Of a stretch of 64,000 nucleotides of DNA, positions 21,201 to 52,835 are shown piece after piece. Both the position numbers and the translations under genes were made by a program. This DNA is from a virus. The stretch's first letter is position 1; each line of letters begins with the position of its first letter. Under the pieces are notes generated by a model. That model was not told the DNA's origin. It did not search any database and saw nothing but the letters and a program-made list of their open reading frames with translations. The stretch covers positions 1-64,000 of IMG/VR virus record IMGVR_UViG_3300005337_000003. One strand, given 5' to 3'.

Positions 21201-24200
21201 GGAAGCGGGGGTCTCCTGCTTTTTTACCTTCGTCGAGCAGTTTCTGTTCATAAGCCGAATAGGCAGCCTGGAAAGCCCCAGGAATTTCCAGGGATTCATA
21301 CATATCGCGGCTGGCCTCCTGGTATTGCTGGATGCGCTCCGCGATATCGAATTCACGGCCAATTTTTGGCTGGCCCACAGCGTCGTATAAAGAGGACAAC
21401 TGTCTTAGTTCCCGCTGGATGGCCTCAGCTTGCTCTATTGCTTCCAACACATCTTCCGAAGATGCTGCAGCTATCTGACCGCTGACCTGGTTAAGCCGGT
21501 CGTATACGTCATTCATGGCCATACGGGCCTCTTTGCCTATCTCGTCCTTTTTGAAAAGATCCTGGGCTTTATAAAACTCTTCTGTGAATTCAGTGTGAAA
21601 GTATTTACGCCTATGCTGCTCCCATTCGGACTGGGTATCGGCCAGGGTTTGTTTATCCTGTAATGATCCTGTCTCGTGGTATTTTAGGGATGCCTGCCGG
21701 ATCTTGCTTAAGTATTGAGCACGAGCCAGATCAGCCCCCTGGAATTGGTTTAGGAATCTCCAGACCTTTTTCTCAGTCAATTCGCCGGTATTCTCATCCA
21801 CCACACCAACAGTCTCGATAAAACCTAGGCGTTCCCCGGATTCAGCTGGCTTATTCATATTGATATCAGCGTCGTCCAGCAAGGGCTTAAGCTGGATGGC
21901 CATTTCATTGTATCGTGCCTGGGCCTTTACTTCCATTTTGGAATACTCCTGCAACATATAAGTAGCCAATCCCCCCACTACAGGATCAGGGTTATAGGCA
22001 TAGCTTTCCAGGAATGCACCAGCCATATTCACATCCTTTAGTTTACCCTGTAATGCCTGGGATAGTTTCTCAGGTGTAAGCTTTTCCTCAGCATATTCCT
22101 TCTCAGCCTCCGCTATGACTTTGGCTGAGGCCTTCTTGGCTTTCAGCTCATTGATCCGGGATTGCCATTTCTGATCGATATTTTCGGCAGTGCCTTTGAT
22201 GGTGCTCCAGAGAGCCTTATGTGTAGCTTTCTCGTAAAATTTATCGAGCAAACTCTCGGTACGACGGATATTATCATTTATGGAGCTTATTGCCTTGATA
22301 TTTTTTACACCATTGGCTTCCAGCGTCTCATAAGCCTGATTAACAAAACCTCCCCAATAATTCATTACCTTCTGGAAATATAAAGCCTTCTGCACATTAT
22401 CAGGATCATTAATATCCTTCAATATGTTCTGCATTGCCTCGTGGATCTGTTGTGTCATATTATCAACAGTTCCCAGGCTATTAACAGCAGCCACTACACG
22501 TTGACGTGTCAGCTCCACTTCATCCTCTAAATCCTTAGTATGTTCAAGCAAAAGTGTCTGGTAGGAAGATAGGTTGGATTTTATTGTTTCCAAGGCCCCG
22601 GTTTTTAGGCGATTTTTGAGTATATCTGCCAGTTCTCCGAGGTCGGGCCGATGAGATACATTATAAAGGCCCTTGGCTGCTTTTTTATAGAAATCATTAA
22701 CTAGGTCTTCTATTTCCTTCGCATTCGCGTTCTGGGCTACAAATCCTCTTAAAGAACGATCGTAATCTTCCTTGTATGTGACCATTTCCTTGTCGCTCAT
22801 TATCTCTGGATCCAGTTGGAATACTCCCCCTTCTTTTAATATATCACTTAGCTGCTCTAAGGTAGTGGACGGATTTATAGTCTCAGCTTTGATACCTGAG
22901 CCAAATACTTTCCTTAATACTTTACGGATCGCATACAGCAGGTTATCGATAAATTTCCTAAAGGCGTCAGTAGATTCAAGGCCTTGATTGTTTAGATCCT
23001 GGATGGCCGTTAGGCCCCTTACAAGCGCTTCTTCCTTGAAGAGGTCAGAGCTTTCATCCAGGTTCGGGTAGAGTTGCCTCATGTCTTCCAGAATCTTAGC
23101 GCCTTCCTGGGTGGTAGTTAGTTTGGCGTACAGATTATCAAATAATTCACGGTTCTGTTTTGAGATAGCCCGTAGCAGGGGGTGTACAAATTCGTGTAGT
23201 ACGTCATCAGGTGTTATGGCGCTGCCGACAAAATAGACCGAATCCTTGTAGAAGAAGGCGCTCTGTCCATTCCAGGGATTTGGACTGCCTTTAGTAATAT
23301 CTGCAGCCTCTTCGGGCGTGATTGTCTGGTAGTCTACTCCCAGCTGTGTCTTTAAAGCATCCGCATATTTACGGATCATTTCCTGGGAGTAATTCTTCCT
23401 TGTATCTTCTGCAGATAGATAGGTATCTGATCTGCCCAGGTTTTTGAAAGCTATAAATTCTGTTGCGTGTTTGGGATCTATTAATACCTCATTCCAGTCG
23501 TTACCATGCTCATCTGTGGTTTTTGTGGGTTTGAAGCCTTGTTTTTTCAGGATATTGGTTATGGTTTCGTCGTAGAATTTATAAATAGGCCTTAAAGCAG
23601 CAAATCCTTCAGTTTCTGCTCTCTTTAATTCTAGTTTAATTTGGTTTATTTCATTAAGTACATTTTTTTTCTCTTGTTGTAAAACTAATTGAGCTTCTTC
23701 CTTTGTAGGTTTTATAGCTATAAGCTCATCTGTATAACCTAATCTATAAACTCTCCATTCTTTAATGAAATTTCCATTTTCATCTAGTGCGGGTTCATCT
23801 GCTAAGAATCCTTCTTTTGTACCTTCTTTTATATCAAATACTACATTATTTAAATTATTAAGTCGATCTTCTTTATGTCTTCTAAATTCTTCTAATGTGG
23901 TATGTCCTTCAATTTTACTAATAGTGTCTCCCAATGGAAATAGAACCTTCTCATAACCCTTCTTAGCAGAATCTTGCATAATAGATTTAATAAAGAATGA
24001 TACCCAGTTATTGTCTTTGTTTAGAAGTTGAAGAAAATTATTTTTCTCATGATTAATTTCTGGACCTAATCCTTTCCTTTCATTTGTTAAAAAATCAATA
24101 TTTCTACCTTTCTGAAATAGATCAGATTGTACTTCAAGTATTCTACGACTCTTAGAATTAGATATTAATTCATTTTTTCCTACAAATCTATTCTCATCAG

Positions 24201-25284
24201 GATAGTGAGCTTGTTCATCACTTCTAAACCATCCCATGCCCTCAGAAGTAGAAAATCCGGCATGCCCCTGAATACTCGGAGTAATTCCGGGAATCTTAAT
24301 TTCATTCTCAGTGTAGTTAATTCCCCCAAGCACCGTCATGTTAGCATAGTTGTCACTATTCACCTCTATAGAGCTTATGTTGAATTCTTCTCTGGCCTGT
24401 GCTATTGCATCATCTAATTTCATACCCCCCTCTCCTAGCTCTTCCACTCGCTTTTGATAGCTAATCATTACTCCAAGTCCATGGGCCTCGGGACCTGGCA
24501 GGCTTTTTTTGACTGTATTTATCTCAATAGTATAACTATAGTCAGCTAGTAAGCTGGTAAGCAAGTTCTCCCTATTGTATGGATTTTCCACCTGCAGGCT
24601 TTTGAGGATTTCCACTTGTTCTTTGGGAATTTGCAGATCCTGATTAAGCTTGTTCCAGAACACATCATCCCGCCACTGGTTCTTGTCTGCTTTTTTGAAC
24701 CAGTCTATTGCCTGCTGGGAGGCTAATATAAATGAAGCCTTCAGCCCGTATTTAATAGCTTTTTCGTTTTTATATGCAACAAACTCCGGACTTATACTGG
24801 TAGGCGAAGGTAGGCGATTAGCATCATAATTAGCTGCTTGTTGACGTTCCTGCTTGGCAGCTGTGTCCAGCCTACCTTTCTCCTGCCATACCTTCCAGGT
24901 AAAATTATCTGACTGGCCTACCTGCTTCCTTTCAAAGCGCAGCACCTTATTGATATCTTTCCTGGCGTACTCGTTGTTTTTTATCCCGATCTGCTTCATG
25001 ATGATCTGCGCCTGGGCATCGGATATCTGGGATTTAGGGACAGCGCGGCCTAGTTCTTTGAAGAATTGTGCTTTAGTAATTGGTATAATCCTGGAAGCTA
25101 AATCAGAACTAGTAATAACCACAGGGCCTATCAGACCGTAAAATTCATCAGGCGTAGGAAAACGGTCAGTTATCCCCTTATGAGTTTGCCATACACCTAT
25201 CTTGGCAGCTACAATGGCAGGATGCAAATCAAACTGATCTGCCAGTTTAATTACCTCGAAGTGGTTTATATTTATACAATTCAT
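18241..25284 (-). CDS. Giant virion cargo protein (2347 aa) with a zincin-like HEFVH motif and a C-terminal hydrophobic helix
   Basis: Uninterrupted ORF; lies after the vRNAP as in crAss-like phages; HEFVH at 23182-23196; hydrophobic LGTLMLIYSLLIPYLFG near the C-terminus. Confidence 0.85.
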   Translation of the reverse strand: MNCININHFEVIKLADQFDLHPAIVAAKIGVWQTHKGITDRFPTPDEFYGLIGPVVITSSDLASRIIPITKAQFFKELGRAVPKSQISDAQAQIIMKQIGIKNNEYARKDINKVLRFERKQVGQSDNFTWKVWQEKGRLDTAAKQERQQAANYDANRLPSPTSISPEFVAYKNEKAIKYGLKASFILASQQAIDWFKKADKNQWRDDVFWNKLNQDLQIPKEQVEILKSLQVENPYNRENLLTSLLADYSYTIEINTVKKSLPGPEAHGLGVMISYQKRVEELGEGGMKLDDAIAQAREEFNISSIEVNSDNYANMTVLGGINYTENEIKIPGITPSIQGHAGFSTSEGMGWFRSDEQAHYPDENRFVGKNELISNSKSRRILEVQSDLFQKGRNIDFLTNERKGLGPEINHEKNNFLQLLNKDNNWVSFFIKSIMQDSAKKGYEKVLFPLGDTISKIEGHTTLEEFRRHKEDRLNNLNNVVFDIKEGTKEGFLADEPALDENGNFIKEWRVYRLGYTDELIAIKPTKEEAQLVLQQEKKNVLNEINQIKLELKRAETEGFAALRPIYKFYDETITNILKKQGFKPTKTTDEHGNDWNEVLIDPKHATEFIAFKNLGRSDTYLSAEDTRKNYSQEMIRKYADALKTQLGVDYQTITPEEAADITKGSPNPWNGQSAFFYKDSVYFVGSAITPDDVLHEFVHPLLRAISKQNRELFDNLYAKLTTTQEGAKILEDMRQLYPNLDESSDLFKEEALVRGLTAIQDLNNQGLESTDAFRKFIDNLLYAIRKVLRKVFGSGIKAETINPSTTLEQLSDILKEGGVFQLDPEIMSDKEMVTYKEDYDRSLRGFVAQNANAKEIEDLVNDFYKKAAKGLYNVSHRPDLGELADILKNRLKTGALETIKSNLSSYQTLLLEHTKDLEDEVELTRQRVVAAVNSLGTVDNMTQQIHEAMQNILKDINDPDNVQKALYFQKVMNYWGGFVNQAYETLEANGVKNIKAISSINDNIRRTESLLDKFYEKATHKALWSTIKGTAENIDQKWQSRINELKAKKASAKVIAEAEKEYAEEKLTPEKLSQALQGKLKDVNMAGAFLESYAYNPDPVVGGLATYMLQEYSKMEVKAQARYNEMAIQLKPLLDDADINMNKPAESGERLGFIETVGVVDENTGELTEKKVWRFLNQFQGADLARAQYLSKIRQASLKYHETGSLQDKQTLADTQSEWEQHRRKYFHTEFTEEFYKAQDLFKKDEIGKEARMAMNDVYDRLNQVSGQIAAASSEDVLEAIEQAEAIQRELRQLSSLYDAVGQPKIGREFDIAERIQQYQEASRDMYESLEIPGAFQAAYSAYEQKLLDEGKKAGDPRFQELMDRWLDKNTRIKVTDEFWQERKEIYEDIAELMKRIPNQGKLTEKVEEDSKLIQDLLKASRDESGQPQGTEMTPEKQQRIHDAEERLSAAREQLNNLSGLTKQESDEMHTLLAKNARSGLTNDEQLRLSRLFDKQRSMGLDSVERAELFSLFNELDELQYKLPTDAYVDTFNDLLAAMDPTVVYSIFNKYELEAEDLTVINDIDIQQLMRASPDFEDWFIRNHTSKNSFSYETAEDYTTWRRTAAWSVIRPLQDKHYEHSSVKDLNGNAVPIKAVPSMRYYKKLLKDSYRVKQEVGVNADNRGRWLPRTAAQGAPDDRYINKDYERLKQSDPSTFKLLEKMKQLHVENQVGLPDRQKLWMDMPRYEKRGVEKLQSGNLLKRLIYKAKTFWQKARDSWDHGFNFEDTKQLITVDMFDDDTSGIPISGLSDIPVDEVSTDAIYTMLRYSYSAERSRTLHKISPVARATQQVLNNERNSPLYQRMLKNNTIVNPNRRKDQYMRAKAVNNLVERMLEGVENKGWGSDNPAIQNFSNLLFKSASGAFLNLNIPSAIKNAVSAKFQGMIESSAGKHMRWKDFIAAEYDASQVTFEIMTEIYKSEPKSLGFQMVEIFDPERDRFAHSYGESLTRTVQKDYTWGILGRMNDFRRTTQLQSNIQVLYGMLRTQRILLSDGSNIMYKDAWEINKDGKIQTKASVPAEWGITYDKDGNQVVGKKFIEKRLEFQRVSDNLNGAMSREFRPEADRYLAFRYISFFRRFLTSMLVNRFAVNRYDYSLSNTKQGWYITFANLLWDSIRNGGKNLPYMKAEEKAAFMRVMTELGTLMLIYSLLIPYLFGFDPEDKDRFKKLKAKSDALQIPGITIDDKGRPFSFGGWVSNHALYQLLAFKTENDQFLPWPGLGLGNYKDMLDIKAVVFGPTLSSGSDVINDLWYMTTGNEKARYQKRIGAYRWQDEDSLKLWNHLGKILGLSSSNLDPVIAIRNAQMSDH

Positions 25285-25637
25285 TTTAAAAATCTCAACT
25301 TGTACTCAACACCATAAATAAACTCAAGGATATTATCAATCAGTTGCTGAATATATCCTTCTGTTTGGGTGGATCTATATTCCTTTATAGCAATGCATTG
25401 TTTACGTAAATATCCCACCATGTCAATGCCTTCCTGTATCGGTATACTTTTATAGCCTTTGATTATGTCATACTGGCCTTGATATGCTTCACAAAAAGCA
25501 TCTCGAAGTTCTGGCATACCTTTATATAGCTCATCGAGAGCTGCATGCTGAGCAAATGAAGTTGTTTGGAGGTGCGCAATATGCCCCATTACTTCTATTT
25601 CGAATAATGCGCTTACGAATTCACTGGTGCTTTTCAT
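25281..25637 (-). CDS. Ferritin/Dps-like four-helix protein
   Basis: HIAHLQTTSFAQHAALDELY...DAFCEAYQG...YKLRFL pattern. Confidence 0.7.
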   Translation of the reverse strand: MKSTSEFVSALFEIEVMGHIAHLQTTSFAQHAALDELYKGMPELRDAFCEAYQGQYDIIKGYKSIPIQEGIDMVGYLRKQCIAIKEYRSTQTEGYIQQLIDNILEFIYGVEYKLRFLK

Positions 25638-25638
25638 G

Positions 25639-28600
25639 TTATAAACAGTCTATTAGTTGTTTAGTTTCTTCCTCGGAAAGAGAGTCGAATTGTTCTTTGG
25701 TTAGGTCCGGATATTTTTGAAGAATGGCAGTGTGGTGCCTTTCCCATAAGTCAACCTCATTGTCGGCTGAATCTGAATATTCCAATTCGGGTAATTCCAA
25801 CTGTTGATCTTCCGTGCCCAATTTTTCCCTATCTATCCTATCATTTATCATATAATCCTTGAACCGGTTACGGTCCGAAATATCTGAATTAACGACCAGG
25901 AACTTACCGGCAAATTCCGCCAGGTATTTAGCGTCAATAGTTTTACCCAACCTTTGCACATCCTCCCCTATCAACCTCTGGATCCTTTGTACCGGGATCA
26001 CCCGGGCAAATGAGAAAGGATTACGGGTATTAGGCCCTGATTGCATATACAAGTATAGTGGTAATTTTTTAAAGAATGTGGCAATATAATCCGCATCTTT
26101 CTGATCAATGCCTGAAATTTTCAACAATTCATTAGAATTAGCCAACTGCTTGAGGTTCTGGTGGAATCTATCTACCTCGGCTGAAGATAACTTGGTTGTT
26201 GATAGCATTAAGTTAGTTAGTCCAGACGAAGTAGACTGCTTAATATTACCCAGTATAGAAAACTGGGTCTTCAACTGAGGGTATTTAAACAACAACGCTT
26301 CATATTTAGCAGCCACATTCCTTGGCGCTTTAAGTAATTGATAGGGACTGAATATATCAAACAAGGCCTGCTCATTCAGCCATTCCTTATAACTCTTCTC
26401 ACGCATCCGGATATCAAAATCCACATCGGTTTCGTCAGATAACCTAATATTATCAGTGGCCTTATTCTGCGACAGGATATCCTGGTAATCGAAATTATCA
26501 ATTATCGAATCCATCGGATACATGCCTTTGAGTTCATCCCGTTTATCAACAAAGTAAGCACGTTCATTATCGCTGGAGAATTCAACGCCCTCAGCATCCT
26601 CTACTGAAGCAATAGCCTTGTCATAACCTCGTAACTTTTGTTGGAAGATATAATAGATCAGGTCGCTCTTGAAAACCCGGGCGGTCTGCACCGGATCCCC
26701 ACCAAATAGCCCTTTAGCTTCGCTATCCTGCATAAAGTTAAAGAGAAACTTATTCAGCTCTGGATTGTTAAGCAGTGTCATCAATCTTCCGAAGACATCC
26801 GTTACGAATTTGTGCACGTAGAATGGCCCTATTGCTGAGTTATTAAGGATTGATTTAACGTATTTGTCAGAAATTAACGTGTTTTGCTCGGCATCCTCTA
26901 TTTCCTGGGTCTTAGCTGCGAATTCAAACACAGTCTGTGCTTTGTTAGTGTCTACATTAAAGGCCCGCTGCAATTTATCCAATCCTGCCACTATATTCTC
27001 AATTTCCAGGAAATGTAGGAATACAGCCAGGTCCGGATTACGGACAACAGCTTTCTTAATAGGCTTATCAAAGTCTTTAACTCCTTCAGGATCCTGCCTG
27101 TATTCGTCCAGTGCAGCATTCAGCGCCTGTGATAGCGGTAACTTACCTCCCTTATCCGGATGGGTAAGCAACGTGAACTTACGGTGCAGGAATTTAACCT
27201 CTTCGGGGGATCCGGCATTTTGGAATAATCCCAGAACCCGCCGTTTGAATTCCTCGGGATCAATGTCGTTTTTGATATCGTCCTGGAGCGCACGAGCACC
27301 TCCAAAGCTCCTAAGAGGCTCGGCAGCTTTAGTTTCACCAGAAGCAACCTGATTACCCATTAAGTCAGTAATATCGGTAATGCCTTCGGTGTAGATCAAC
27401 GCCAGCTCTGCCAGATCACCCGGCTTTGGCTTAATGATTCCGAATCTGCGCAGTATATTACGCTGGGCTGGGCGTCGATAATTCCTGTAATTGCCCGCAG
27501 CTCCAAATATTCCACCTACAGGGCTTTTTTGCAGTCGTTGCTGTTTAACATATTCCTGGATGATCGGGTGCCTGAGAAAGGTTACGGCCTTTTTCAGGGG
27601 GACTCCGGATCTAACCAGAAACAGCAAAACCGGGGCTAGTTCCTTATTGCCCTGTATATAGCTGATCCAGTCATCCTTCTCCACATCAACCCAGCCATTG
27701 ATCAGCTGGCTGACCACCTCCGATATGGAGTTGCCATCAGTGTCTTTAAGTCCGGAAAGCGATATACCTCCAGGTGTGGAATTGTGAGGCATAAGTATGG
27801 TAGCACGACCTGCATCAAAGCTTGGTGCCAATTCCAGGCCGATCGCTTGCGACACGGCATTGAATGTATTATTAATAGCACCAATCCCAAGGGCATCCTT
27901 ACCCACAGAGTTAGCTTGCTGCACCTCGATACTACGCAAGGGCTCATACATTCGGGTGCCCTGGTTATTATGCTTCTGATCCCCGCGTATTCCCTCAGCG
28001 ATGGGCTTGGCTATATCCACGTCATTAGGTCGTACCAGGTTTTCAAAATTGTCAGGCCTTTCCATCATGGCCCGCATGGTCTGGATAATGTTATTCTCCA
28101 GCACGGGACTGCCATTCAGTTCCGAATAATACTCATCAAAAGGCTTTTTGCCCTGATCGCGCAATATGTCACGGATCTCATCATCAGTATAATCCAGATC
28201 CCAGTTAGCCCCAAATATATCGCCTAATAACTTATCGGCGGCAGCATCTTTCTTCCACTGTAATTTACCCTGGCTATTGATTAATTCGTCCTTCTGGATA
28301 GCTGTTTTTATAATCTCATCATGCAGCTGCTTGGCTTTTTTCTTAGAAATAGCTGAGGCGTATGTAGGCTCACCATCTACCATACGGATATGAGGCATAA
28401 GCATCGGCAGTTTGTCATAATCAAAGTCACCTCCGGTCTTGGCTGTGATCTCTGGCGGGGCCAGCAGTATATTACCTACATATTCAGGCAAAAACTCATA
28501 AACCTCTACAAAATCGGTGGAGTTAGGTCCCTGGGTGGGGACACGGGCACCCACCATCGTTACCATCTGCCGGTGATTATTCTCATCCAGCCATGCCTCA

Positions 28601-31600
28601 TCCTTGAGCAATATATTCAAGGCATCAAGCCGGGACATTTTCTGGCTTTTTGATTTCTCAATAACGGAAGGGAGTTGCATGAGTTGTTTAAAGTCTCCCT
28701 GGATCGCTATCTTGATCTTGGCTGCGGTTATCTTGCCGTTACGGATATGATAGGTAGGCAGATCGTTAGTGCCATACCTGGCTACCTGTTCGGCAGTGGG
28801 TTTATCGAACTTACGAGGCTCTGAATAAGCGAAGGCTTTATTTTCGAAAAGAGTGGAGGGAACAAGCACAAATTGTTCACCCTTAACCTTTGGCGTTACC
28901 AGGCGCTTATTGGCCAGTGCCACTATGGTCTTCTCAATTATCTCAGCAGAAGGTGACACATCCAACGGATTTTTTATGGTGTCCCGGCGGATGGTTTGGA
29001 TATAGTTCCATTCATGCTCCCCCACATCGGAACGTTGCAGCTCATCAGATATCAAAGCCAATAACTTATCCAGCTTAATATCCTTGGTTGATCCCCCATC
29101 CTTAACTCCCAATTCGTAAAGCAATTCCTGCTTTTTATAAGCCACAAACTTATCCATGGCGCCTATATAGGCACGGTAATTTTTATAGTTGTCTGAAGCC
29201 TTAAGCTTCTGCTCTTCCGTCAGACTATTCCAATCCGATCCTTTATAATCCACTGGTATCCCCTGATCGAACATGCCAACAGATACCAATTTACGCAGCT
29301 GGGAGATCAGCGTTACCTTTCCCTTATATTTAGGTGAGGCTTTCACCTGGTACTTTAAAAAGTCAGTATGGATTAAATTAGGCACAAACGGCTTGTCTGA
29401 TAAAGTACGGGTTTGCACATCGCTATATAACTGCTGGGGCCCTGGCCACTCGGATATAGTAGATATCTTGGAGCCGGATACATAGGTGAGGTAATCGATA
29501 CCCTCCGACATCATCTTATGATGTAGCGCGTCCATATTTTCGGAAAGTCCAGGTATAATGGGCATCATGGCGAACTTGTGCAGTGCAGTCATCGGCACCG
29601 GCTGGCCCAGGAGCGGGCCAGCATACCCCATCTTGAATACCGGTGGGAACTGCCCCTTATAGGCAGGCTTATCTCCCCGGACAAAAGACTGGAAAAGCCC
29701 TTCCTGCTCATCGGACCATTCACCCAGGCCTTTTGCCAGGATCCTATAGGTATCAAAAGCCACTAAACAAGAAGCGTCCGTCTCATTGACCTTAGAGTAC
29801 GCTTTAGCAGTAGAATCGGCACTAGTGGCTTTAGTATATTGATCAAGATAGGCCGATACCGACTTTACATCGTCCACGACGGCAGTCCTGAAGATGCTAT
29901 TAAATGGCTCCGGTTTTAGACCTTGTGAAGTTGCCAGGGGTTTGCCAACCTTGTTATTTATGTAGTTCACGAAAGTTTGATCAGAGGGCATTACATCCCC
30001 TGGGGAAGCCATCGAGGCATTACGCTTGAAGAAATCACTGTACTGGGCAACATCCCCATAGATAACTATCATCTCCTCAAAGTGGTGGATCCAGTTATTG
30101 GCAACAAAGGAAGATATAACTGCGGCCCTGGCTTGTTCTGGCGTTATAGTTTTACCGTCGAGGGTTGCCAGTCCCTGCAGCTGATTGATCAGCGTGGGAC
30201 TTATAAAGCTGCCACCAAGCTCTGCGCTGCGGTTATTAACCTGCTGTACCAGACCAGAGAAGTATTCCACAATTTCCCTGGTTATAATGTCTTCCAGTTT
30301 GGGATTTATTTTACCTTCCAGTAGTGCCTGTTTTGTTTGATCGCTTAGAACCCCTGCAAAGGAATGGAACTGTGTTGCCCTTTCCAGGTACTTAAAATCC
30401 GTCTGTTTTAATTCTCCGGAATCCAGAAGCTTCTTAACGTAATTGATCCGGTCCAGTTCACCTGACAGGTAGTTGCGCAGGATTTCCACGTATTTGAATA
30501 CGCCCGACACATAACCGTTGGATTCTGGAATGAATGATTCGGTATCAATATAAAGCCGTGGATTCTTTGCACCAGTCTTATAATTACTCAGCGTTACAGA
30601 AAAAGATGCACTCTTGCCCGCATGTCGGGTAAGCTCGGGCGTAAATCCCATGACCTGCTGGTGAATATCAGAGATCAGGCGTGTCAGCTCGTCAGAGCCT
30701 GCCTGTGATAGGCCTTGTGTAAATCTGCCATTGATTGAAGGGATGGTCCCTGATAAGTTATCAACCTGCATGGTATTACCCGGATACCTCGGGCCATCAG
30801 GCCTGTTCCTATCATATAGAGCATTGATCCAAATTGATCTATCGGTGTAATAATTATAGGGTCGTCCCGGTTGATCCGGTGTGGGACTAAAGTGAGCTGT
30901 CTGCGGCTGGCTTAATAAGTTATTAAAGTTACCGGTACGATTAAATAGCGACACGATCTGTGTGATGGAACTTTGCTGATTATACTCGGATTGCTGCTCC
31001 CCTTCAGCATTCGCTACCATGAAATCCGAATACCTGCCGCTGTATTGACTCTCAAGCTGCAGTATCTTACCATAGTTTCCTTTAGGCCCTACCTGGCCGG
31101 TAACTCCCATCTCGGAGTTGTGTCGTGTAAATTGGCCTATACCCCGGATTATAAAGTTTCGCTCCTGTAGGTTACGGATATTATCGTAAATACCACTCAA
31201 CCGGATGTTTCCGGATTTTACTTCTTTTTCCAGCTGACTTTTGATCACTGGCAGATTGCTCAACGACATTCCTATATCCTGAAGGAACTCAAAAGGGTTG
31301 GCGTTTACTTCCTGTATGGTTTGGTATTTATCCAATAATGACTTTGCATCCAGGTAATTCCCGTGGATATCGTTACGCATGAATGGGCCTCCTGATTTGA
31401 AAAACTCATTCTTCCAGGTACGGTCTATTTTCTTGATCTCGGATATCGCGTTACCTATCCGGATATCATAGTTCGACTCACCGGTATTGTCATCGCGCTG
31501 CTCAGCAATCTCTGTCTGACGGAGCAGGATCCGGTATTTATTGGCACTGTGGTAGAATTTAAGCCACAATCCAGACTCCTTATCGGTCTGACCCTCATAC

Positions 31601-34600
31601 GATAGCGGTCCCAGCTTTCTCAACAGCTGGTCAATCGGCGGGTAGTTGATGCGTTCAGATTTGAGCCTTTGGTACATGTCCTCAAGACCTGTGCTGTTCT
31701 GAACGGTCTGCATGATATATGCCCAAGATTGCCTAAAATCCACCAGCGTGGGAAAGCCCAGCGCATTAGGCTGCACCTGCCGGTTAACATCTGGCTGATA
31801 TAAGCTGCTGACAATGGCTTTGATCTCCTCGGATACCAGGTCGTAAATAATGGTATCATTAGACTTATTTTCAAAGAAATTTTTACCTGCCATCTCCCGG
31901 GCCTCATGCTCCACATCATCAGATACCTCTGACTGGAATTGTGAGACAGCGTCCTTAATACGACTACTGATCAACTGTGATCGCTGCAGATGATACCCAA
32001 TAACGCCTTTATCTTTAAGGGAGAGTTCCGGGTGGGTCGCATCCCCAAAGTTATCGACAGCATATTGCAGCGTCTGCAGCGTCTTCTGTAAATCAGCACT
32101 TGGATTAACTTTAAACTGCTCCTGTACATCTGATAGCCTCTCTTCGAACTTTAGCTGGGCGTACCGATACAAACTGGCAACACCTTTCAGCTTAGACAAT
32201 ATCACCGCAGTGTAGGAAGATGTATATTGGGCCTGCAGGTTTTCCAACTCTTCTTTTTCTTCCGGTGTCAGATTTGGCTTCTGCTCAAGATCTCGTTTAC
32301 GGTTACCTGCCTGTAGATTGGCCGCATTCATCTCATCCAAGGCTTCGGAGAACAACGCATCCACACTGTCTGATATTAAGTCGGAGGTTTCAAAGCTCAG
32401 CTCTATTCCGCCCTTTACCGGCTGCATGGCTTTATTGAGCGTATTGAATTCAGCATTTTCAGCTGAGAAGCTATAGGTGGCCAAATCCCCTACTCGCAAT
32501 CTCTGGTAAAGTTCAGCAACTTTTTGGTTAACCCGCTCGTCTATCACGGATTCGCGAACCGTTGCCGATCCGAATAATTCTTTTAAAAAGTTCAGGATGC
32601 GGCGGAATAAAGTATTCCGTTTTGGTGCCTTATCCATCACTAACTTTCCACCGGATAACATATAAGCCCTGAAATCCTCTGCCAGATATTCCTCCAACTG
32701 CTTATTAGTAGCGTCGGAGAATTTAACGGTATTGCCCTGGAAGTCAATGAATGTTCCGGACTTAGTTCTCACCTCACGATATAAGCCCTCCCTATCTTCC
32801 CGAGGTAATAGTCCCTGAGTGAACCCGTGCCATGCCTCATGGTATAAATCTGACGCATCGGCGCCCTTGTATAATTTTACACAGTTAATGGCCCAATTGG
32901 CAATTACATTCGAATCTTCCGCGTTGACTTTTTCGAACATTGCCTGGAATGGAAAATGTTTTGAGAGTGGGCTTTGACTGTACCATTTCTCAGCCTCTTC
33001 GATCTGCGCCTCCATGGCCTTGATGCTCCCTTGGCCTGCGATCTTGTTCCATTTGTCCGGATTTTGTCCCTTAAGGGATGCCAGGTAATCCTTGGCAGAC
33101 ATTTTTGGTTTATCATATTCAGGCCTGATAAAACCGTTTTCATCAAACAGTGTGGGTTGTGACACCTCAACCTTAGGTTTATCAATAATATCCACATTAG
33201 CGGCTGGGCTGATGGTGAATTCCAGATTAGAACCAGCGCTCTGCAACCCTCCTTGGGAATCTACAGCATATGGTACAGTAAAATTATCTTGGATAAAACC
33301 AAAATACTTCCTGGTGGTTGTCGTTAAGGTGTTGCCGTTAATCTCGAAATCCTCATAAGAGTTACTATTAAACAGTGTCTTATTAATGCTTAACTTGATA
33401 GTATCTATCCTGTAATATTTTACACTTCCGTCAGGTTGAGGAAACTCATACACATCATCGAACTGAGCAGTTTCCAGGTTTGTCACTTTGTTGCTACGCC
33501 CCCCATACATCGCCTGGGCCTTAGCCGGTGTTAATTCCTCCGCAGGAATACGGCGGGTAAACATGGTACGCAATGCCTGACCCATCTCCTCCTTGCTGGC
33601 GTAACTCTGTGGTTGGCCCATCCGGTAGACCACAAGTTCACCACCAACAACCCGTATGTCAAGCGCTTTTGGATCAGTATATAAAAACTGACGGAGTAAC
33701 TTAAGCTTATTCTCTGGTGTAACTGCAAACGTCTGGCCTCCCCTGGTGAATGTAAGGTCAGTAGTGATAAGAGATACTAGTTTATTCACCATCTCGGGGG
33801 TAAACTCTTTCCGGTTAACAGATACAGACATCTCAGTGCCTGGAAGATCGAAATAGTAGACGTTGGGCCTTTGGTTCCTGGCCGGGATGCCCCGGTAAAA
33901 ATTAATAGGCGCTACGATCTTGAGGGCTGATACTGGTGAGGCTCCCTTCTTTATCGGAGGTACGTAGCGGATTTGGCCTCCTTTTATATCAACCTGCAGG
34001 GATTTCCCTGTCTGGTGGATATACTTGCGGGCGTCGGCCAATAGTTTTAATTTGCGGGTAGTGACGGCCAGTGCCTGCTCATACGTCATGCCTTGAGATT
34101 CCAGCTGTTTGAGCTGTCGCAGATCGGTTTCGAGCAAGGGCCTGCCTTCCACAGGATTGCGGAAGTTGTAGTGTATGAGCGATCCTTCGTCAGATTTTAC
34201 CAAATCAGCTGTAAATCGGATAGGTTTTCCTTCCGGGTCCGTTACCAGCAGCACAATGCCTTTATTGGCATTTTCCAATTTGGTGGGATCAGCTTGTATT
34301 TCAGCCTGGGTATCCGGGTAAAAATCCTCCACTTTAAAGTCTTTGGTTAGCGACATGGTAAGCCTTACCGGTACACCGTTGATAATGCTTGAGCCGTCCG
34401 GCTGCACGTTTTTTATTATCTGTGTCTTAGCGTCAGCATAGATTTTCATGCCGGGCCGGATCTGGCCGGTATTGATATCAGTATCCATCACTAAGTCCGA
34501 GAGGATCAACGCGGGGTTAGCCTTAAACTCCGGGACTTTATCTACCGGGATTTCTTGCTGTGCTGGAGGATTGATTTGCGAATCCTTAATAATATTCTCC

Positions 34601-34938
34601 TTAACAACGTTGGCCTCTTGAGTCTGTGTATTGAAGCCGTTAACGTACTCTTGCACCTTATCGAAATTTTCAAAGGCAGCTTCCTTTCCGGAAACGACTG
34701 CGGCGGAAGAGGCAAGCTTGGAGAATACATCCCGGTTGATTCCCATCACGGCGCGGATGTTTGCAGGTAGCAGTCCAACATATGTCATTGCCAATACCGG
34801 ATCACCGGTCTTGGTGCGGATCAAATCATGGAACTTTCTGGCATAATCGTCAAACTGAAAATCTTTGGCCTTGTTAAGGTCGATAGCTACTTTGCCGAAA
34901 AGCAGTCGCTGCTGTTGGGGAGTTAATGTACAATTCAT
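25639..34938 (-). CDS. Virion-packaged DNA-dependent RNA polymerase (crAss-like, 3099 aa)
   Basis: Catalytic loop GGDFDYDK at 28414-28428, preceded by RVPTQG; zincin HEAWH at 32827-32841; true start is probably ATG 34938 (ATGA overlap), not TTG 34944. Confidence 0.92.
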   Translation of the reverse strand: MNCTLTPQQQRLLFGKVAIDLNKAKDFQFDDYARKFHDLIRTKTGDPVLAMTYVGLLPANIRAVMGINRDVFSKLASSAAVVSGKEAAFENFDKVQEYVNGFNTQTQEANVVKENIIKDSQINPPAQQEIPVDKVPEFKANPALILSDLVMDTDINTGQIRPGMKIYADAKTQIIKNVQPDGSSIINGVPVRLTMSLTKDFKVEDFYPDTQAEIQADPTKLENANKGIVLLVTDPEGKPIRFTADLVKSDEGSLIHYNFRNPVEGRPLLETDLRQLKQLESQGMTYEQALAVTTRKLKLLADARKYIHQTGKSLQVDIKGGQIRYVPPIKKGASPVSALKIVAPINFYRGIPARNQRPNVYYFDLPGTEMSVSVNRKEFTPEMVNKLVSLITTDLTFTRGGQTFAVTPENKLKLLRQFLYTDPKALDIRVVGGELVVYRMGQPQSYASKEEMGQALRTMFTRRIPAEELTPAKAQAMYGGRSNKVTNLETAQFDDVYEFPQPDGSVKYYRIDTIKLSINKTLFNSNSYEDFEINGNTLTTTTRKYFGFIQDNFTVPYAVDSQGGLQSAGSNLEFTISPAANVDIIDKPKVEVSQPTLFDENGFIRPEYDKPKMSAKDYLASLKGQNPDKWNKIAGQGSIKAMEAQIEEAEKWYSQSPLSKHFPFQAMFEKVNAEDSNVIANWAINCVKLYKGADASDLYHEAWHGFTQGLLPREDREGLYREVRTKSGTFIDFQGNTVKFSDATNKQLEEYLAEDFRAYMLSGGKLVMDKAPKRNTLFRRILNFLKELFGSATVRESVIDERVNQKVAELYQRLRVGDLATYSFSAENAEFNTLNKAMQPVKGGIELSFETSDLISDSVDALFSEALDEMNAANLQAGNRKRDLEQKPNLTPEEKEELENLQAQYTSSYTAVILSKLKGVASLYRYAQLKFEERLSDVQEQFKVNPSADLQKTLQTLQYAVDNFGDATHPELSLKDKGVIGYHLQRSQLISSRIKDAVSQFQSEVSDDVEHEAREMAGKNFFENKSNDTIIYDLVSEEIKAIVSSLYQPDVNRQVQPNALGFPTLVDFRQSWAYIMQTVQNSTGLEDMYQRLKSERINYPPIDQLLRKLGPLSYEGQTDKESGLWLKFYHSANKYRILLRQTEIAEQRDDNTGESNYDIRIGNAISEIKKIDRTWKNEFFKSGGPFMRNDIHGNYLDAKSLLDKYQTIQEVNANPFEFLQDIGMSLSNLPVIKSQLEKEVKSGNIRLSGIYDNIRNLQERNFIIRGIGQFTRHNSEMGVTGQVGPKGNYGKILQLESQYSGRYSDFMVANAEGEQQSEYNQQSSITQIVSLFNRTGNFNNLLSQPQTAHFSPTPDQPGRPYNYYTDRSIWINALYDRNRPDGPRYPGNTMQVDNLSGTIPSINGRFTQGLSQAGSDELTRLISDIHQQVMGFTPELTRHAGKSASFSVTLSNYKTGAKNPRLYIDTESFIPESNGYVSGVFKYVEILRNYLSGELDRINYVKKLLDSGELKQTDFKYLERATQFHSFAGVLSDQTKQALLEGKINPKLEDIITREIVEYFSGLVQQVNNRSAELGGSFISPTLINQLQGLATLDGKTITPEQARAAVISSFVANNWIHHFEEMIVIYGDVAQYSDFFKRNASMASPGDVMPSDQTFVNYINNKVGKPLATSQGLKPEPFNSIFRTAVVDDVKSVSAYLDQYTKATSADSTAKAYSKVNETDASCLVAFDTYRILAKGLGEWSDEQEGLFQSFVRGDKPAYKGQFPPVFKMGYAGPLLGQPVPMTALHKFAMMPIIPGLSENMDALHHKMMSEGIDYLTYVSGSKISTISEWPGPQQLYSDVQTRTLSDKPFVPNLIHTDFLKYQVKASPKYKGKVTLISQLRKLVSVGMFDQGIPVDYKGSDWNSLTEEQKLKASDNYKNYRAYIGAMDKFVAYKKQELLYELGVKDGGSTKDIKLDKLLALISDELQRSDVGEHEWNYIQTIRRDTIKNPLDVSPSAEIIEKTIVALANKRLVTPKVKGEQFVLVPSTLFENKAFAYSEPRKFDKPTAEQVARYGTNDLPTYHIRNGKITAAKIKIAIQGDFKQLMQLPSVIEKSKSQKMSRLDALNILLKDEAWLDENNHRQMVTMVGARVPTQGPNSTDFVEVYEFLPEYVGNILLAPPEITAKTGGDFDYDKLPMLMPHIRMVDGEPTYASAISKKKAKQLHDEIIKTAIQKDELINSQGKLQWKKDAAADKLLGDIFGANWDLDYTDDEIRDILRDQGKKPFDEYYSELNGSPVLENNIIQTMRAMMERPDNFENLVRPNDVDIAKPIAEGIRGDQKHNNQGTRMYEPLRSIEVQQANSVGKDALGIGAINNTFNAVSQAIGLELAPSFDAGRATILMPHNSTPGGISLSGLKDTDGNSISEVVSQLINGWVDVEKDDWISYIQGNKELAPVLLFLVRSGVPLKKAVTFLRHPIIQEYVKQQRLQKSPVGGIFGAAGNYRNYRRPAQRNILRRFGIIKPKPGDLAELALIYTEGITDITDLMGNQVASGETKAAEPLRSFGGARALQDDIKNDIDPEEFKRRVLGLFQNAGSPEEVKFLHRKFTLLTHPDKGGKLPLSQALNAALDEYRQDPEGVKDFDKPIKKAVVRNPDLAVFLHFLEIENIVAGLDKLQRAFNVDTNKAQTVFEFAAKTQEIEDAEQNTLISDKYVKSILNNSAIGPFYVHKFVTDVFGRLMTLLNNPELNKFLFNFMQDSEAKGLFGGDPVQTARVFKSDLIYYIFQQKLRGYDKAIASVEDAEGVEFSSDNERAYFVDKRDELKGMYPMDSIIDNFDYQDILSQNKATDNIRLSDETDVDFDIRMREKSYKEWLNEQALFDIFSPYQLLKAPRNVAAKYEALLFKYPQLKTQFSILGNIKQSTSSGLTNLMLSTTKLSSAEVDRFHQNLKQLANSNELLKISGIDQKDADYIATFFKKLPLYLYMQSGPNTRNPFSFARVIPVQRIQRLIGEDVQRLGKTIDAKYLAEFAGKFLVVNSDISDRNRFKDYMINDRIDREKLGTEDQQLELPELEYSDSADNEVDLWERHHTAILQKYPDLTKEQFDSLSEEETKQLIDCL

Positions 34939-37900
34939 ACGCAACCTAGTGTTTCTTCGAACTCTTTCTCAAATTTCTCAGGATCAGCCAATGCCTCTTC
35001 CATTGTCTTCTCAAGCACCTGACGGCTACTATTAATGAAATTAGTCACCTGTTCACTACTCTGAGTTGCCAGTTCTTTTTCCTTATCTGTTGGCTGCGTA
35101 TCCTGTGCTGCTTCGGATTGTATACCCAAAACAGTATCCTTTAAGTCTTTTTCTTCCACGGTTATCTTGAGGTTTTTATTAAGGAGATCAATGGTTAATT
35201 TTTTACCTGTATTTTGCGACACCATACCTTTGTCATGCTCTTTGTTAGTCAGCTGCACTACAGTACCTACTGGCAGATTAGACATACTGATAACATTGTG
35301 AAATTCCTGACGACGCGCTTCCAGGCCTTTGAGTATTTTATTAGCGGTTAAATTCATCCGCTTACGGGTCCTGCGGTCAAACAGCCTAAACATGGTCTCA
35401 AATTCAGCTTTAAGCGCGTCCAGTTCGTCCAGGTTCTTAACACCAGGAATGCGCTCCAATACATCCTCAGCCTGGACATCCTCCTTGGTTTTACCTTGTT
35501 CCTGTGCAACTTCTGGCTGCTCGACTTGTTCTTCAGTAACTACCTCTTCCTCCGGCTTGGTAACATTGAGATAATTATCTACAATGTCTTTAAATTTTTG
35601 ATATCTCGGATCCCTGGCATCTATGGCTTGTTTGGCATTAATATCAAAAAAGCGCTCAGGCACAGCCTTGTCATTAATCAGCTTATCTACACTCTGCGGA
35701 GATAGTACAAATCCCCTATCATACAAAGTCTGTAAGATCGAATTGTCTTCAGTGGATTTCTGAGCTAATTCGATACCCTTCTTGATTATATCGCCTTTAG
35801 AATTATAAAGATCCGTAAATGCACTATTAAGTCTTTCATAATAATTTAAAAATCCTTGAGGATCAGCCAGCGTATTTACTGTTTCAGTTGTAATAACGTT
35901 CTCTATTCCCAACTCATGCAGATCCAGCAATTCATCAAATGATTTACGTAATTCCACATTAGACACGCTGGAAGATGGGTTGAGGGATTTAAGGTAGTTT
36001 GAGTATGATTTGAACAGTTTGTTTTGATCTGTCCGTTTCTGTTTGTCCAGAGATAGCGCCTTTTTTGCTTCCGGCGATAGTCCTTCCAGGTCCTGGTGCA
36101 GGTATAGACCTGTTAATGTGGTATTAAAATCCTCCAGGTGTTTTAAGGTATTTTTTTTGGCCTTAAGCTCCTCGCGGTTATTATTGTATTCCAGTACCTC
36201 GATCTCATCTTTTAGTAGACCTATTTCCTTTTGAAGCTGTATAGGGCTTGTCAGGGCATTAAAATAATTGGAAGGAATCTTATTGGTTCCGGCCTGGGCC
36301 AGCAGGCCGGAAGCGATGTTTTTGATCCTTGTTGCATTGTCCTCGACTTTGGCACTATCGAATATCGCCCTCGACTTGGCTTGTTCCCAGGCTGAATACC
36401 CTATGGCTTCCCGGGTATATTCCGGGGTATCCTTGTGGTACATTGTAGGACTGAAAGGGTTCTGTAGCCTGAGATTCCACTCCTCGTATTTTTGTTTGAC
36501 AGTCTCGGCCCGGGAGATCAGCGAATCGACCTTTGAAAGAATCTCCTGCCCGTCCCGACCGAATGTTTCCTTTATGGCCTCTGGCGTCATGCTTCGGATA
36601 TCGCGCAGTTTATCTAAGAACAGATCATAGGATCCGGTATCAAGAGCCAGTTTGGTATTGCTTGCCAAATTCTCAAATTCGTTATCCAACCACTTCTTCT
36701 TATCATTCTCATCAAGAGCTTCGTATTGGCCTTTTACCGCTTCAGCGCTGGTAGTGTAGTTGATATCGCGGGAGGAAAAGAATCTCAAAGGGTCTTTATA
36801 ATACTCATTAAGAGTTGCAAGGGTCTTCTGTGTATAGTCATTCTTGGTCTTACGATAGCCTGCTATTTTTTCAATACCTGCACTTACTGGTGATACCAAG
36901 CCCCCCATGAAAAATCCGGAGGCAAACGTTTCAAATCCCTTGCCGCTGAGCTGATCCACGGTGTTCTTGGCTAAGGCATCCCACATGCTGTCATTTGTAT
37001 ATTCTCCCCTACCGTGGTCTAGTCCGCTCCTGGTCTTGGAGCCGTATAAATTGGCATAGTAATCCACAGCGGTACCTGCCGTGATGTCCTGCAACGACTC
37101 CTGCAACCCTTCCGAAAGGTTGCCCCTGAAGTATTTAACAGCGCCTATTCCCCAGTTTTTAGGCTTGAACGCTGCGCGGGTCCGATTCATAAAAGTGGCC
37201 TCAACAAGCTTGTCCCCCTGCCTCATGAACCGGGCTCCATTACGCAGCGTATATTCTGTTGGTTGGGCAAATGATTTCAGCAACGGATCAAACGTCAGCT
37301 TATTGGTGAGGAATATCACCGGAATGTTAGCAATCATGTTAGATGTGCCGGCATCCTTGGCATTCTCTTTTAACGTAGCATATTCCTGGTCATCCGGATA
37401 ACGACCACCGTGCTCTTCACGGAACTTGGCCAGCATCCGCTCCTCGGCATCCCGCTGGGCTGCTGCTCCTTCCATACGGGCCTCCGATACGGTAAAATTG
37501 GCTGCCTGTATGTCTTGGTAAAGGGCGCCGGCTGTCTTATAGGAAGCCACGGCTGCATTCACACTGCCTGATTTGCTGGCCTGATATATATCCTTAGCGG
37601 CTTCAAACGTATTGGCCAGGGGCGTAATACTTTTAGCTGCATTCCAGAGCTTCTCTGCAGCTGAGTAATTATTGATTTCCTTCAGGGTGCCTAATGCCGC
37701 CTCGTATTTGCCCAGGTCTTTGGTGAACTTGCCTACTTGTAAAGCTCCCTGCGTACCCTTGAAGGCACTCCCTATTCCTGAGGTAAGATAATTTTCCAGC
37801 ACCAGTTCACCTATCATACCTACAGTGTAGCCTGAATTACTCATAAGGTTAGAGGCAAAACCGCTCACACCTCCCCTGGTTGATGAACCTACGGCATTAT

Positions 37901-38291
37901 AGTAATTCATCTCGTCGGCACTATCGTAATCCAGGCCCGTGAAATCTCCTGTAAGGGCTGCGCCGTAGGAACGGATCGGGGCTTTAAAGCCTGTAGCAGC
38001 CAGCTTACCTGCTGTCTTTATTGCCCGCCACATATCTCCCAGGCCTGAACTATTGTTGTTATACAACGATTCGTTATCTACCCATGGGTTGAACCCCAGT
38101 TTAGAAAAAGACGGATGAGAATAATAACGCTCAAAGTTCTTATTTTGGTCTGTGGTGCTACGGGGATCATAGCTGAAAGAGGCTGCACTTACATACGGAC
38201 TGAATACCTGCTTAGATACCCGGTCAGGAATAGAAGAGACAGCAGCTTCCTGCTGCGCTATCAATTCATCGAGTTTTGGGTCCCGTGGCAT
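34935..38291 (-). CDS. Large virion cargo protein (1118 aa)
   Basis: Long helical Ala/Gly-rich ORF directly upstream of the vRNAP; EGLQESLQ and GFFMGGL segments. Confidence 0.8.
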   Translation of the reverse strand: MPRDPKLDELIAQQEAAVSSIPDRVSKQVFSPYVSAASFSYDPRSTTDQNKNFERYYSHPSFSKLGFNPWVDNESLYNNNSSGLGDMWRAIKTAGKLAATGFKAPIRSYGAALTGDFTGLDYDSADEMNYYNAVGSSTRGGVSGFASNLMSNSGYTVGMIGELVLENYLTSGIGSAFKGTQGALQVGKFTKDLGKYEAALGTLKEINNYSAAEKLWNAAKSITPLANTFEAAKDIYQASKSGSVNAAVASYKTAGALYQDIQAANFTVSEARMEGAAAQRDAEERMLAKFREEHGGRYPDDQEYATLKENAKDAGTSNMIANIPVIFLTNKLTFDPLLKSFAQPTEYTLRNGARFMRQGDKLVEATFMNRTRAAFKPKNWGIGAVKYFRGNLSEGLQESLQDITAGTAVDYYANLYGSKTRSGLDHGRGEYTNDSMWDALAKNTVDQLSGKGFETFASGFFMGGLVSPVSAGIEKIAGYRKTKNDYTQKTLATLNEYYKDPLRFFSSRDINYTTSAEAVKGQYEALDENDKKKWLDNEFENLASNTKLALDTGSYDLFLDKLRDIRSMTPEAIKETFGRDGQEILSKVDSLISRAETVKQKYEEWNLRLQNPFSPTMYHKDTPEYTREAIGYSAWEQAKSRAIFDSAKVEDNATRIKNIASGLLAQAGTNKIPSNYFNALTSPIQLQKEIGLLKDEIEVLEYNNNREELKAKKNTLKHLEDFNTTLTGLYLHQDLEGLSPEAKKALSLDKQKRTDQNKLFKSYSNYLKSLNPSSSVSNVELRKSFDELLDLHELGIENVITTETVNTLADPQGFLNYYERLNSAFTDLYNSKGDIIKKGIELAQKSTEDNSILQTLYDRGFVLSPQSVDKLINDKAVPERFFDINAKQAIDARDPRYQKFKDIVDNYLNVTKPEEEVVTEEQVEQPEVAQEQGKTKEDVQAEDVLERIPGVKNLDELDALKAEFETMFRLFDRRTRKRMNLTANKILKGLEARRQEFHNVISMSNLPVGTVVQLTNKEHDKGMVSQNTGKKLTIDLLNKNLKITVEEKDLKDTVLGIQSEAAQDTQPTDKEKELATQSSEQVTNFINSSRQVLEKTMEEALADPEKFEKEFEETLGCV

Positions 38292-41200: not shown

Positions 41201-41331
41201 GAGTTGATCCTCTGCAGTCCTTGGTTATATTGCTGTTGCTTTACACCCAAGATATTACTGTAATAATTAAAATCAGGCTGGAACGGTTGAAACTGTGTGA
41301 CCGTATCGCCTATGCCGAGATAATCCGCCAT
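38266..41331 (-). CDS. Virion cargo-type protein (1021 aa)
   Basis: Long ORF in the cargo block; QPFQPDFNYY N-terminus. Confidence 0.75.
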   Translation of the reverse strand: MADYLGIGDTVTQFQPFQPDFNYYSNILGVKQQQYNQGLQRINSLYTSTFNSPLTREDNIQRREDYFKTIDSERKRIATTDLSIDQNVSAAQKLFEPILKDKYLINDIAFTKKLQNSYKNADQYRYCTDPDKCGGKFSEAGLKALGYRAREFQEASPEQSLGMRGPDYVPDQDVFGKSMEAMKKAGFNVSMDYIKDGYIVTNTNGTLLYDKEGGGVLPQFLLGMFGNDSAVQAMYQTRAYVHQNEFIDQYMATHGVDRNTAESQYVNTFIAPAVISANRSKAAYDQMMERLSTETAAIELADKQGKIAEGDGTTNDYDRLMALIDHSKNAETVHQRQQNLIRTAPNIDNAQGLKARAQQIMAGMFMQEDLGRAAYTYAMGTAKQELKADPYSLAAFNSKLSYSNASRLKAQDHQYELETLLYKHNLDMQANTAKGYDAQSIGNFLAQKGIDPQELVKIGVDPDNIQKKDILKLKQAGLFSPEEAKAAQTLPPNTSSYPFENTYIENKKLETDAVNRSVVGANAFLKDMLGSMVKAYRQADVENGKDAQAKKVKILLDTVAILKGTGVDYNKLLNGELPLDVVNNISNVGDAAGNAMNIRNNNAGSRIYQDGWDDASMAQLQLDIQAAKGLQDINTKQVNEAFRRVRAGVSPNDLTGGVLYSMVDNGRLLPPTEAYQRYYDREVARQISTGYTPNTTAITKAFDENYARFSKQINTQLSSINNPVGASGAGGAQNAKTSVSLSGDASAPLHPDYQMIKKTLNSLSENPENKTLAFIFSTNRELPATPQTAPEKAELFDLIRDNIGTKGVKVDMQVHNIPQWFDADALASSSSIDYAIQTGERNVYGENVQLPGQMVEPRIATDFTISEDAYRKFKGLKKSDEVTLEDRTVRVVTSADNPAVVPLAQKLTRPPASVYMNQPNASTTIDLGYKGKAVIENAGNGFVMKTYSPTYVQDDNGNLITQWRWTESKPLINVSQLGQDDQLSFSDYVKVTTANLNQAYQQYLNVSNYKKQNNATGPKTR

Positions 41332-52735: not shown

Positions 52736-52751
52736 TTTTCTGTTATCTAGT

Positions 52752-52780
52752 AAAAAACCCCCGCCATTAGCGGACGGGGG
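52752..52780 (-). terminator. Intrinsic terminator
   Basis: On the - strand: CCCCCGTCCGC-TAAT-GGCGGGGG hairpin followed by TTTTTT. Confidence 0.8.
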
Positions 52781-52835
52781 CCTGTTGTCGCCACTTAACC
52801 AACAACCAGAAAGTGGACGCTAACTTCACTTATTA

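Follow-up and report, generated by a model that had tools for sequence, protein, structure and literature searches.

It is still an open question by what means podoviruses move several giant proteins through their narrow tails while maintaining the correct order and stoichiometry, and the structural atlas of crAss001 attributes the order of ejection only to packing and interactions (PMC10172136). The question is raised anew by three large genes in a window of 64,000 nucleotides (nt), i.e. positions 1 to 64,000 of the IMG/VR virus record IMGVR_UViG_3300005337_000003, which is a complete genome of an uncultured phage, 129,798 bp long with terminal repeats. The genes encode the proteins A, B and C, the middle one being identified by sequence comparison as the virion RNA polymerase (vRNAP), and most of their few cysteines lie at those termini at which one protein would meet the next. 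A sequence-only reading of the window had proposed that disulfides (or metal bridges) between these termini join the three proteins head to tail. Here, we show the cysteines at the inner termini being a conserved rule, with cysteine under strong positive conservation in these positions. We regard some thiol-mediated end-to-end link among these proteins as very likely and a head-to-tail disulfide chain A-B-C in the mature virion as reasonably probable.

Cysteines of the three proteins are concentrated at the inner termini

Translation of the genes (Table 1) reproduced the counts from which the proposal had started. A has a single cysteine, which is its penultimate residue, C has a single one at residue 3, and B, starting with MNC and ending with LIDCL, contains cysteines at positions 3, 686, 1724 and 3098, the two internal ones being non-conserved. 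Four of the six cysteines in altogether 6564 amino acids (aa) thus occupy the four inner termini, each no more than three residues from the end (P about 1.7e-10 under uniform placement, calculated for the window alone). At the frequency of the replication genes of the window (1.76%; structural and tail genes 3.05%) about 116 cysteines would be expected in A, B and C. The whole cargo block composed of g756, g636, g1021, A, B and C contains 9 cysteines in 8977 aa (0.10%), showing the near-total depletion of cysteine found in ejected proteins of the Schitoviridae type.

An in-frame TTG at position 34944 precedes the ATG of B by two codons; because the relatives of B begin with MNC, the ATG at 34938 is the likely start. 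The termini had been described as facing each other in gene order, which holds for A and B, the stop codon of A overlapping the start codon of B (ATGA) with the cysteine codons at most 10 nt from the junction, but not for B and C, which are separated by a gene encoding a DUF5856 protein. This gene begins one base past the stop codon of B, and its own stop codon overlaps the start of C (ATGA). The DUF5856 open reading frame (ORF) has no cysteine at its tips and is not a chain link, and as the product is neither cysteine-tipped nor cysteine-poor it is probably not cargo.

Terminal cysteines are conserved in distant relatives

All 55 homologues of A, reaching down to 25% identity, have a cysteine within the last 1-5 residues and none has one at the N-terminus (0/55), with one internal cysteine in 71,289 aa. 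In the C family a cysteine is present within the first eight residues of 115 of the 120 listed homologues and is the only cysteine in most of them (19 internal cysteines in 285,754 aa). For the B family (n=107) we found the C-terminal cysteine in 103 and the N-terminal cysteine in 75 proteins and 28 internal cysteines in 401,818 aa, those homologues missing a tip cysteine being largely fused or apparently truncated. In an alignment of 24 vRNAPs with 23-48% identity (alignment A1) C3 and C3098 are invariant, as are the catalytic residues D2171, D2173 and D2175, and C1117 is an invariant column in an alignment of 32 A-family sequences (A2). The cysteine alone is conserved, as we observed no conserved His, Asp or second Cys around the tips.

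To this we add 77 IMG/VR loci taken with 10-kb flanks, in which termini were scored by ORF analysis in assessable cases only. Cysteine is present at the inner termini in 62/63 (C-terminus of A), 68/68 (N-terminus of B), 69/69 (C-terminus of B) and 69/69 cases (N-terminus of C). The outer termini have a cysteine in 1/51 (N-terminus of A) and 1/64 cases (C-terminus of C), the exception being a split piece both times. In total, these loci contain 270 terminal versus 29 internal cysteines in 532,082 aa. The prediction that terminal cysteines are conserved in orthologous trios is thereby borne out for the inner termini, which are as invariant as the catalytic aspartates.

The same grammar is seen in named and cultured phages. 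In phi14:2, the A-type protein gp67 (1797 aa) has one cysteine as the last residue (1797), the B-type gp66 (2180 aa) has Cys3 and Cys2179, and the C-type gp65 (1421 aa) has one cysteine at position 3. In crAss001, the A-type gp47 (2341 aa) has one cysteine at 2339, the B-type gp50 (2412 aa) has cysteines at 5, 1334 and 2404, and the C-type gp49 (1349 aa) has one at 5. As gp47 retains its C-terminal cysteine although its gene and those of gp50 and gp49 lie on opposite strands, the grammar belongs to the proteins and not to gene adjacency, and the facing in gene order emphasised by the sequence-only reading is not the operative feature. In p-crAssphage, the A-type gp45 ends with SCM, while gp44 is a B::C fusion starting with MSC and having no C-terminal cysteine. 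The gut metagenome-assembled genomes cr10_1, cr118_1, cr52_1 and cr108_1 of Suoliviridae/Steigviridae keep the B/C pair with a looser suppression of internal cysteines. In cr108_1 (locus L089, 15707-15998) about 290 nt interrupt the vRNAP gene inside the catalytic GSDFDxDK motif, one ORF ending with AGSD and the next beginning with LYDIDKMY; judged by its sequence, this interruption may be an intron.

Tip cysteines are lost on fusion and appear at new junctions

Long vRNAPs lacking the N-terminal cysteine have an N-terminal region homologous to A. In the loci L083 and L085 an A::B ORF of 4560 aa has a single cysteine at position 4559; by BLAST, its residues 63-918 correspond to A (E 1e-59) and its residues 1572-3414 to B. 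No separate A gene is present upstream, and the C protein encoded downstream has only Cys4. The same pattern is observed in L086, where an ORF of 4770 aa, assigned to A and B without BLAST mapping, has one cysteine as its last residue and is followed by a C protein with the N-terminal cysteine only.

Splitting of a protein is accompanied by the opposite change. The unsplit C protein of L084 (2307 aa) has only Cys4; in L082, an ORF encoding a GIY-YIG endonuclease splits C into a piece of 700 aa with Cys4 and Cys699 and a piece of 1762 aa with Cys3, the C proteins of both loci being 88% identical over the C-terminal 1,730 residues. In L029, a piece of 655 aa with cysteines at both tips corresponds to an internal module of B in L028, and in L041 A is encoded in two pieces with a cysteine pair at the break. 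Moreover, eight extra small links of 165-583 aa located between the main members contain exactly two cysteines each, one per tip. The tip cysteines thus co-vary as predicted, the pair of a junction being lost on fusion and present at every new junction. From these architectures, i.e. fusions, fissions and extra links, therefore follows the rule: each chain end with a neighbour has one cysteine, and there is none at the first N-terminus or the last C-terminus.

ORFs of GIY-YIG homing endonucleases are located at chain junctions in L082 (26831-27616), L050 (19165-19758), L061 (12361-13050) and L064 (10024-10641). Chain junctions may attract such insertions, or the GIY-YIG cassettes may bring their own cysteine tips. 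A further architecture is seen in L034 (7386-25919), where an ORF longer than 6177 aa, running off the contig, has only one cysteine, at the N-terminus, and combines one C-like module with two RNA polymerase-like regions.

A, B and C resemble the RNA polymerase cargo of crAss-like phages

B had been taken for a crAss-type vRNAP, which agrees with its match to phi14:2 gp66 (PDB 6VR4; phmmer E 1.8e-22) extending across the GxDFDxDK motif, with GGDFDYDK of B aligned with GSDFDIDK. The most conserved part of B shares 23-25% identity with named crassviruses, reflecting a distant relationship, and by this sequence evidence B is a genuine crAss-type vRNAP of the two-barrel type. B also contains a HEAWH sequence, which is invariant in the 24 divergent vRNAPs of alignment A1 and suggests a putative zincin-like site inside B; for phi14:2, a zincin domain was placed in gp65 (bioRxiv 10.1101/2020.03.07.982082). 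A J-domain-like insert is found in B at residues 2565-2612, FLHRKFTLLTHPDKGG, which in alignment A1 is common only to B and its nearest relative. It matches the J-domain of TIM14 (PDB 2guz) with E 0.0017 and Pfam DnaJ with E 0.0048, the latter with 17.4 bits being below the cut-off of 27.8, and a single-sequence AlphaFold2 (AF2) model of it with a predicted local distance difference test score (pLDDT) of 50.5 was too poor for a fold search. If this insert is genuine, the polymerase might, on injection, engage host DnaK to assist its pulling or refolding.

C gives weak BLAST matches to phi14:2 gp65 and crAss001 gp49 (E about 4e-6). A gives no BLAST match to gp67 and gp47 and has only position and cysteine grammar in common with them. 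Searches in PHROGs and Pfam assigned none of A, B, C and the neighbouring large proteins to a family, neither megablast of the region nor tblastn of A gave a match in phage records, and among PDB sequences A and C matched only noise in profile as well as sequence searches. In the AF2 model of A, which has a mean pLDDT of 68.9, the fold is all-alpha apart from a small beta domain, and the last helix (1104-1114) is followed by a disordered LGCV tail; a Foldseek search of the PDB with this model gave no match at E <= 1e-3.

The genomic context is that of a structural module. A match to the major head protein phrog_11589, tail-like proteins and a cysteine-rich protein of 1675 aa are encoded upstream of the cysteine-poor block, all on the minus strand, and the cargo block, being downstream of these capsid and tail genes on the same strand, closes the structural module. 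For phi14:2 and crAss001, the cargo proteins were found in virions by mass spectrometry (PMC10172136; bioRxiv 10.1101/2020.03.07.982082). Judged by sequence and gene context, A, B and C most likely are the packed and injected RNA polymerase cargo set of a crAss-like phage.

Comparison with known systems

The closest known case of the tip grammar is the Anabaena phage A-4L (A4), for which cryo-electron microscopy showed gp27 docking into gp26 by its C-terminal helix and being held there by a Cys1715-Cys5 disulfide, described by the authors as an assembly staple of the pre-ejectosome (PNAS 2025, PMC12002296). In the A-4L record, Cys1715 is the sole cysteine of gp27 (1717 aa) and Cys5 the sole cysteine of gp26 (1114 aa). 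A C-terminal tip cysteine followed by an N-terminal one is likewise present at both junctions of the window. Differing from the crassvirus window, A4 belongs to the Saffermanviridae, has no vRNAP and has one junction, whereas the proposed chains of crassviruses have 2-5 links, and tracking with fusion and fission, as seen in crassviruses, is absent from the A4 description. With A-4L gp25-gp29 as queries, BLASTP gave nothing below E 0.1 for A, B and C. By this comparison, the resemblance to A4 appears to be one of working principle and not of family.

Among the crassviruses, phi14:2 and crAss001 are like the window, B being homologous to gp66/gp50 and C weakly to gp65/gp49 with identical tip grammar, but the window encodes larger proteins and has a DUF5856 gene inserted between B and C. 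Both the tail and the portal vertex of crAss001 contain intersubunit disulfides, and the cargo proteins gp45, gp46, gp47, gp49 and gp50 must partly unfold to pass constrictions of <50 A (PMC10172136). The cysteines of the cargo are unmentioned in this paper as well as in the phi14:2 preprint (bioRxiv 10.1101/2020.03.07.982082). The preprint also reported fused cargo polyproteins in some crAss-like phages and suggested their later proteolytic cleavage (bioRxiv 10.1101/2020.03.07.982082). These polyproteins, i.e. p-crAssphage gp44 and the giant ORFs of Suoliviridae, have the same modules in the same N-to-C order in one peptide chain; their modules are joined by peptide bonds, whereas the window has separate genes and putative reducible disulfide links. 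The Schitoviridae proteins N4 gp50 and DEV gp71-73 are essentially free of cysteine, for which passage through the periplasm with its disulfide-forming enzymes was proposed (PMC11445570). Schitoviridae share with the window a giant virion RNA polymerase with companions and a strong suppression of cysteine; there, however, cysteine is suppressed practically completely and no conserved terminal one has been reported, while the window keeps four invariant tips. Cysteine suppression in N4-like phages and the end-to-end disulfide of A4 are already known; for the crassvirus terminal-cysteine rule we found no describing paper in a non-exhaustive literature search, and it is apparently undescribed.

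A model of a disulfide-linked cargo chain and its alternatives

Our data suggest a model according to which internal cysteines would have been eliminated, as happened in other ejected proteins of phages, with one kept per neighbour-facing terminus. In the mature virion, two intermolecular disulfides, A-Cys1117/B-Cys3 and B-Cys3098/C-Cys3, would connect A, B and C head to tail. The product, a single chain of ~6,560 residues running N to C without branches, would correspond at the post-translational level to the fused polyproteins in other crassviruses. As each link is only a few residues away from a chain end, threading of the concatenate through portal and tail would remain possible. The chain would fix the stoichiometry as well as the order of packaging and ejection, and in the reducing cytoplasm it would fall apart into active subunits. 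Disulfide chemistry in crassviruses, chain-wise threading in fixed order and reductive release are those parts of the model which we infer.

Several observations weigh against this disulfide chain. Virions assemble in the reducing cytoplasm and many of the hosts are anaerobes, and a search of the 129.8-kb genome found no thioredoxin. A search of the genome for an Erv1/Alr sulfhydryl oxidase was negative as well, although it is uninformative as the control also matched nowhere. The cargo proteins gp47, gp49 and gp50 are unresolved in the crAss001 maps (PMC10172136). The tracking with fusion and fission shows that the inner termini need a cysteine but does not name the atom to which it bonds. 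Some gut lineages also follow the rule less strictly: in p-crAssphage, gp44 has 7 internal cysteines and gp47 an unpaired C-terminal one with the next protein lacking cysteine, and in cr273_1 the last cysteine of B is 50 residues from the end. In L079, the lone exception at the C-terminus of A among the 77 loci, the cysteine is 18 residues from the end.

An unlikely alternative is that the disulfides are staples of a folded pre-ejectosome as in A4, the proteins separating before or during ejection. In A4, gp27 inserts its C-terminal helix into a cleft of gp26, and the disulfide between the two proteins is part of a structured pentameric ring; a terminal helix precedes the cysteine in the AF2 model of A, too. 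A staple could, however, sit anywhere on an interface, while the cysteine is here at most about 5 residues from the end in most assessable termini; peptide-bond fusions are interchangeable with the cysteine pair, and the capsid offers no reductant to open the bond prior to ejection. The tip position across divergent lineages and the interchange with fusions fit a linear threadable topology better than a staple. A bridging metal ion, for instance Cu(I), or Zn together with water or further ligands, or a strengthened non-covalent dock would dispense with the disulfide. To such a link the same logic of fusion and fission would apply, and neither a reducing cytoplasm nor anaerobic conditions impede the formation of metal bridges, an option also allowed for by the sequence-only reading. 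We nevertheless consider it improbable: a four-ligand metal site is unsupported because conservation at each tip is confined to one cysteine and extends to no nearby His, Asp or second Cys, and in the one solved case of the tip grammar, A4, the link is a disulfide.

Little weight is likewise given by us to the possibility that each tip cysteine acts alone, by binding to another partner such as portal, capsid or other cargo, by forming homodimers or by being modified, with no mutual link. The unpaired cysteine of p-crAssphage gp47 and the CX5C pair of the cargo protein g1021 would both agree with independent tips. Left unexplained would be the outer ends being almost free of cysteine, the pairing of a C-terminal with an N-terminal cysteine at every new junction and the joint loss of both cysteines on fusion. 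Chance, composition or a nucleotide-level constraint by stop/start overlap or ribosome-binding context has a practically negligible probability. The overlap of A and B with the nearby cysteine codons would suit such a constraint, yet the placement in the window alone is far from random (see above), the spacings range from -11 to +1541 nt for A-B and from -10 to +2134 nt for B-C, both TGT and TGC are used, and the rule survives the encoding of A on the opposite strand. An artefact of translational coupling is ruled out by the opposite-strand A of crAss001, the variable spacing and the use of both codons, and a relic of polyprotein cleavage sites by fused forms having no cysteine at the junction. 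The offsets of partner-tip cysteines correlate weakly (rho -0.37 for A C-terminus/B N-terminus and 0.31 for B N-terminus/C N-terminus), are confounded by phylogeny and were not used as evidence.

Further features of the window

The coordinates of all features in the window are summarised in Table 1. The tail and structural proteins are, opposite to the cargo block, rich in cysteine, consistent with a tail stabilised by disulfides or metal as in crAss001 by analogy. The CX5C pair of g1021, a cargo-block protein encoded upstream of A, is kept at 128/134 in L057 (767-3622) and L073 (2638-5574), most other homologues being free of cysteine. The window also encodes a nicotinamide phosphoribosyltransferase, an auxiliary gene of nicotinamide adenine dinucleotide (NAD) salvage.

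Table 1. Genes, cysteine codons and motifs in the window
Feature	Position	Strand	Remark
Protein A, first link	34935..38291	(-)	1118 aa; sole Cys 1117; ends with TLGCV-stop
Protein B, vRNAP, middle link	25639..34938	(-)	3099 aa from ATG 34938; ends with LIDCL-stop
Protein C, last link	18241..25284	(-)	2347 aa; sole Cys 3; starts with MNCINI
A Cys1117 codon, C-terminal tip	34941..34943	(-)	TGC
B Cys3 codon, N-terminal tip	34930..34932	(-)	TGT
B Cys3098 codon, C-terminal tip	25645..25647	(-)	TGT
C Cys3 codon, N-terminal tip	25276..25278	(-)	TGT
B catalytic DFDYD motif, aa 2171-2175	28414..28428	(-)	6VR4 alignment, A1
B HEAWH (HExxH) motif, aa 700-704	32827..32841	(-)	motif only, no family hit
B J-domain-like insert, aa 2565-2612	27103-27246	(-)	HPD 27154-27162
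Intervening DUF5856 / phrog_858 gene	25281..25637	(-)	118 aa; Cys 49 and 81
g1021, cargo block	38266-41331	(-)	CX5C pair at 127/133
Tail/structural proteins	50515-62503	(-)	3.05% Cys overall
Cys-rich protein therein	53990-54523		12 Cys in 177 aa
Cys-rich protein therein	56379-57695		25 Cys in 438 aa; starts with MSCGC
Major head protein match	62580-63932	(-)	phrog_11589
Nicotinamide phosphoribosyltransferase	7077-8570	(+)	phrog_448, E 4e-159

Implications for crassviruses

Crassviruses are the most abundant phages of the human gut. For the delivery of their giant cargo, the rule of one thiol per inner end provides a concrete mechanism that is cheap to test, phi14:2 and crAss001 being available as cultured models, and it would connect the suppression of cysteine, the alternation of split and fused cargo genes and the disulfide of A4. 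Annotators gain a simple signature for members of the cargo chain, including small ones, in uncultured phages. More tentatively, and with somewhat less than even confidence, we propose the crassvirus cargo being a reducible polyprotein in which disulfides replace peptide bonds, with portable junctions, pulled as a single thread from N to C and released by reduction. If this is true, gene splits including those by homing-endonuclease cassettes would be tolerated much like inteins or introns, extra modules could be inserted and genes re-fused without loss of function, and reduction in the cytoplasm would be the switch freeing and activating the RNA polymerase.

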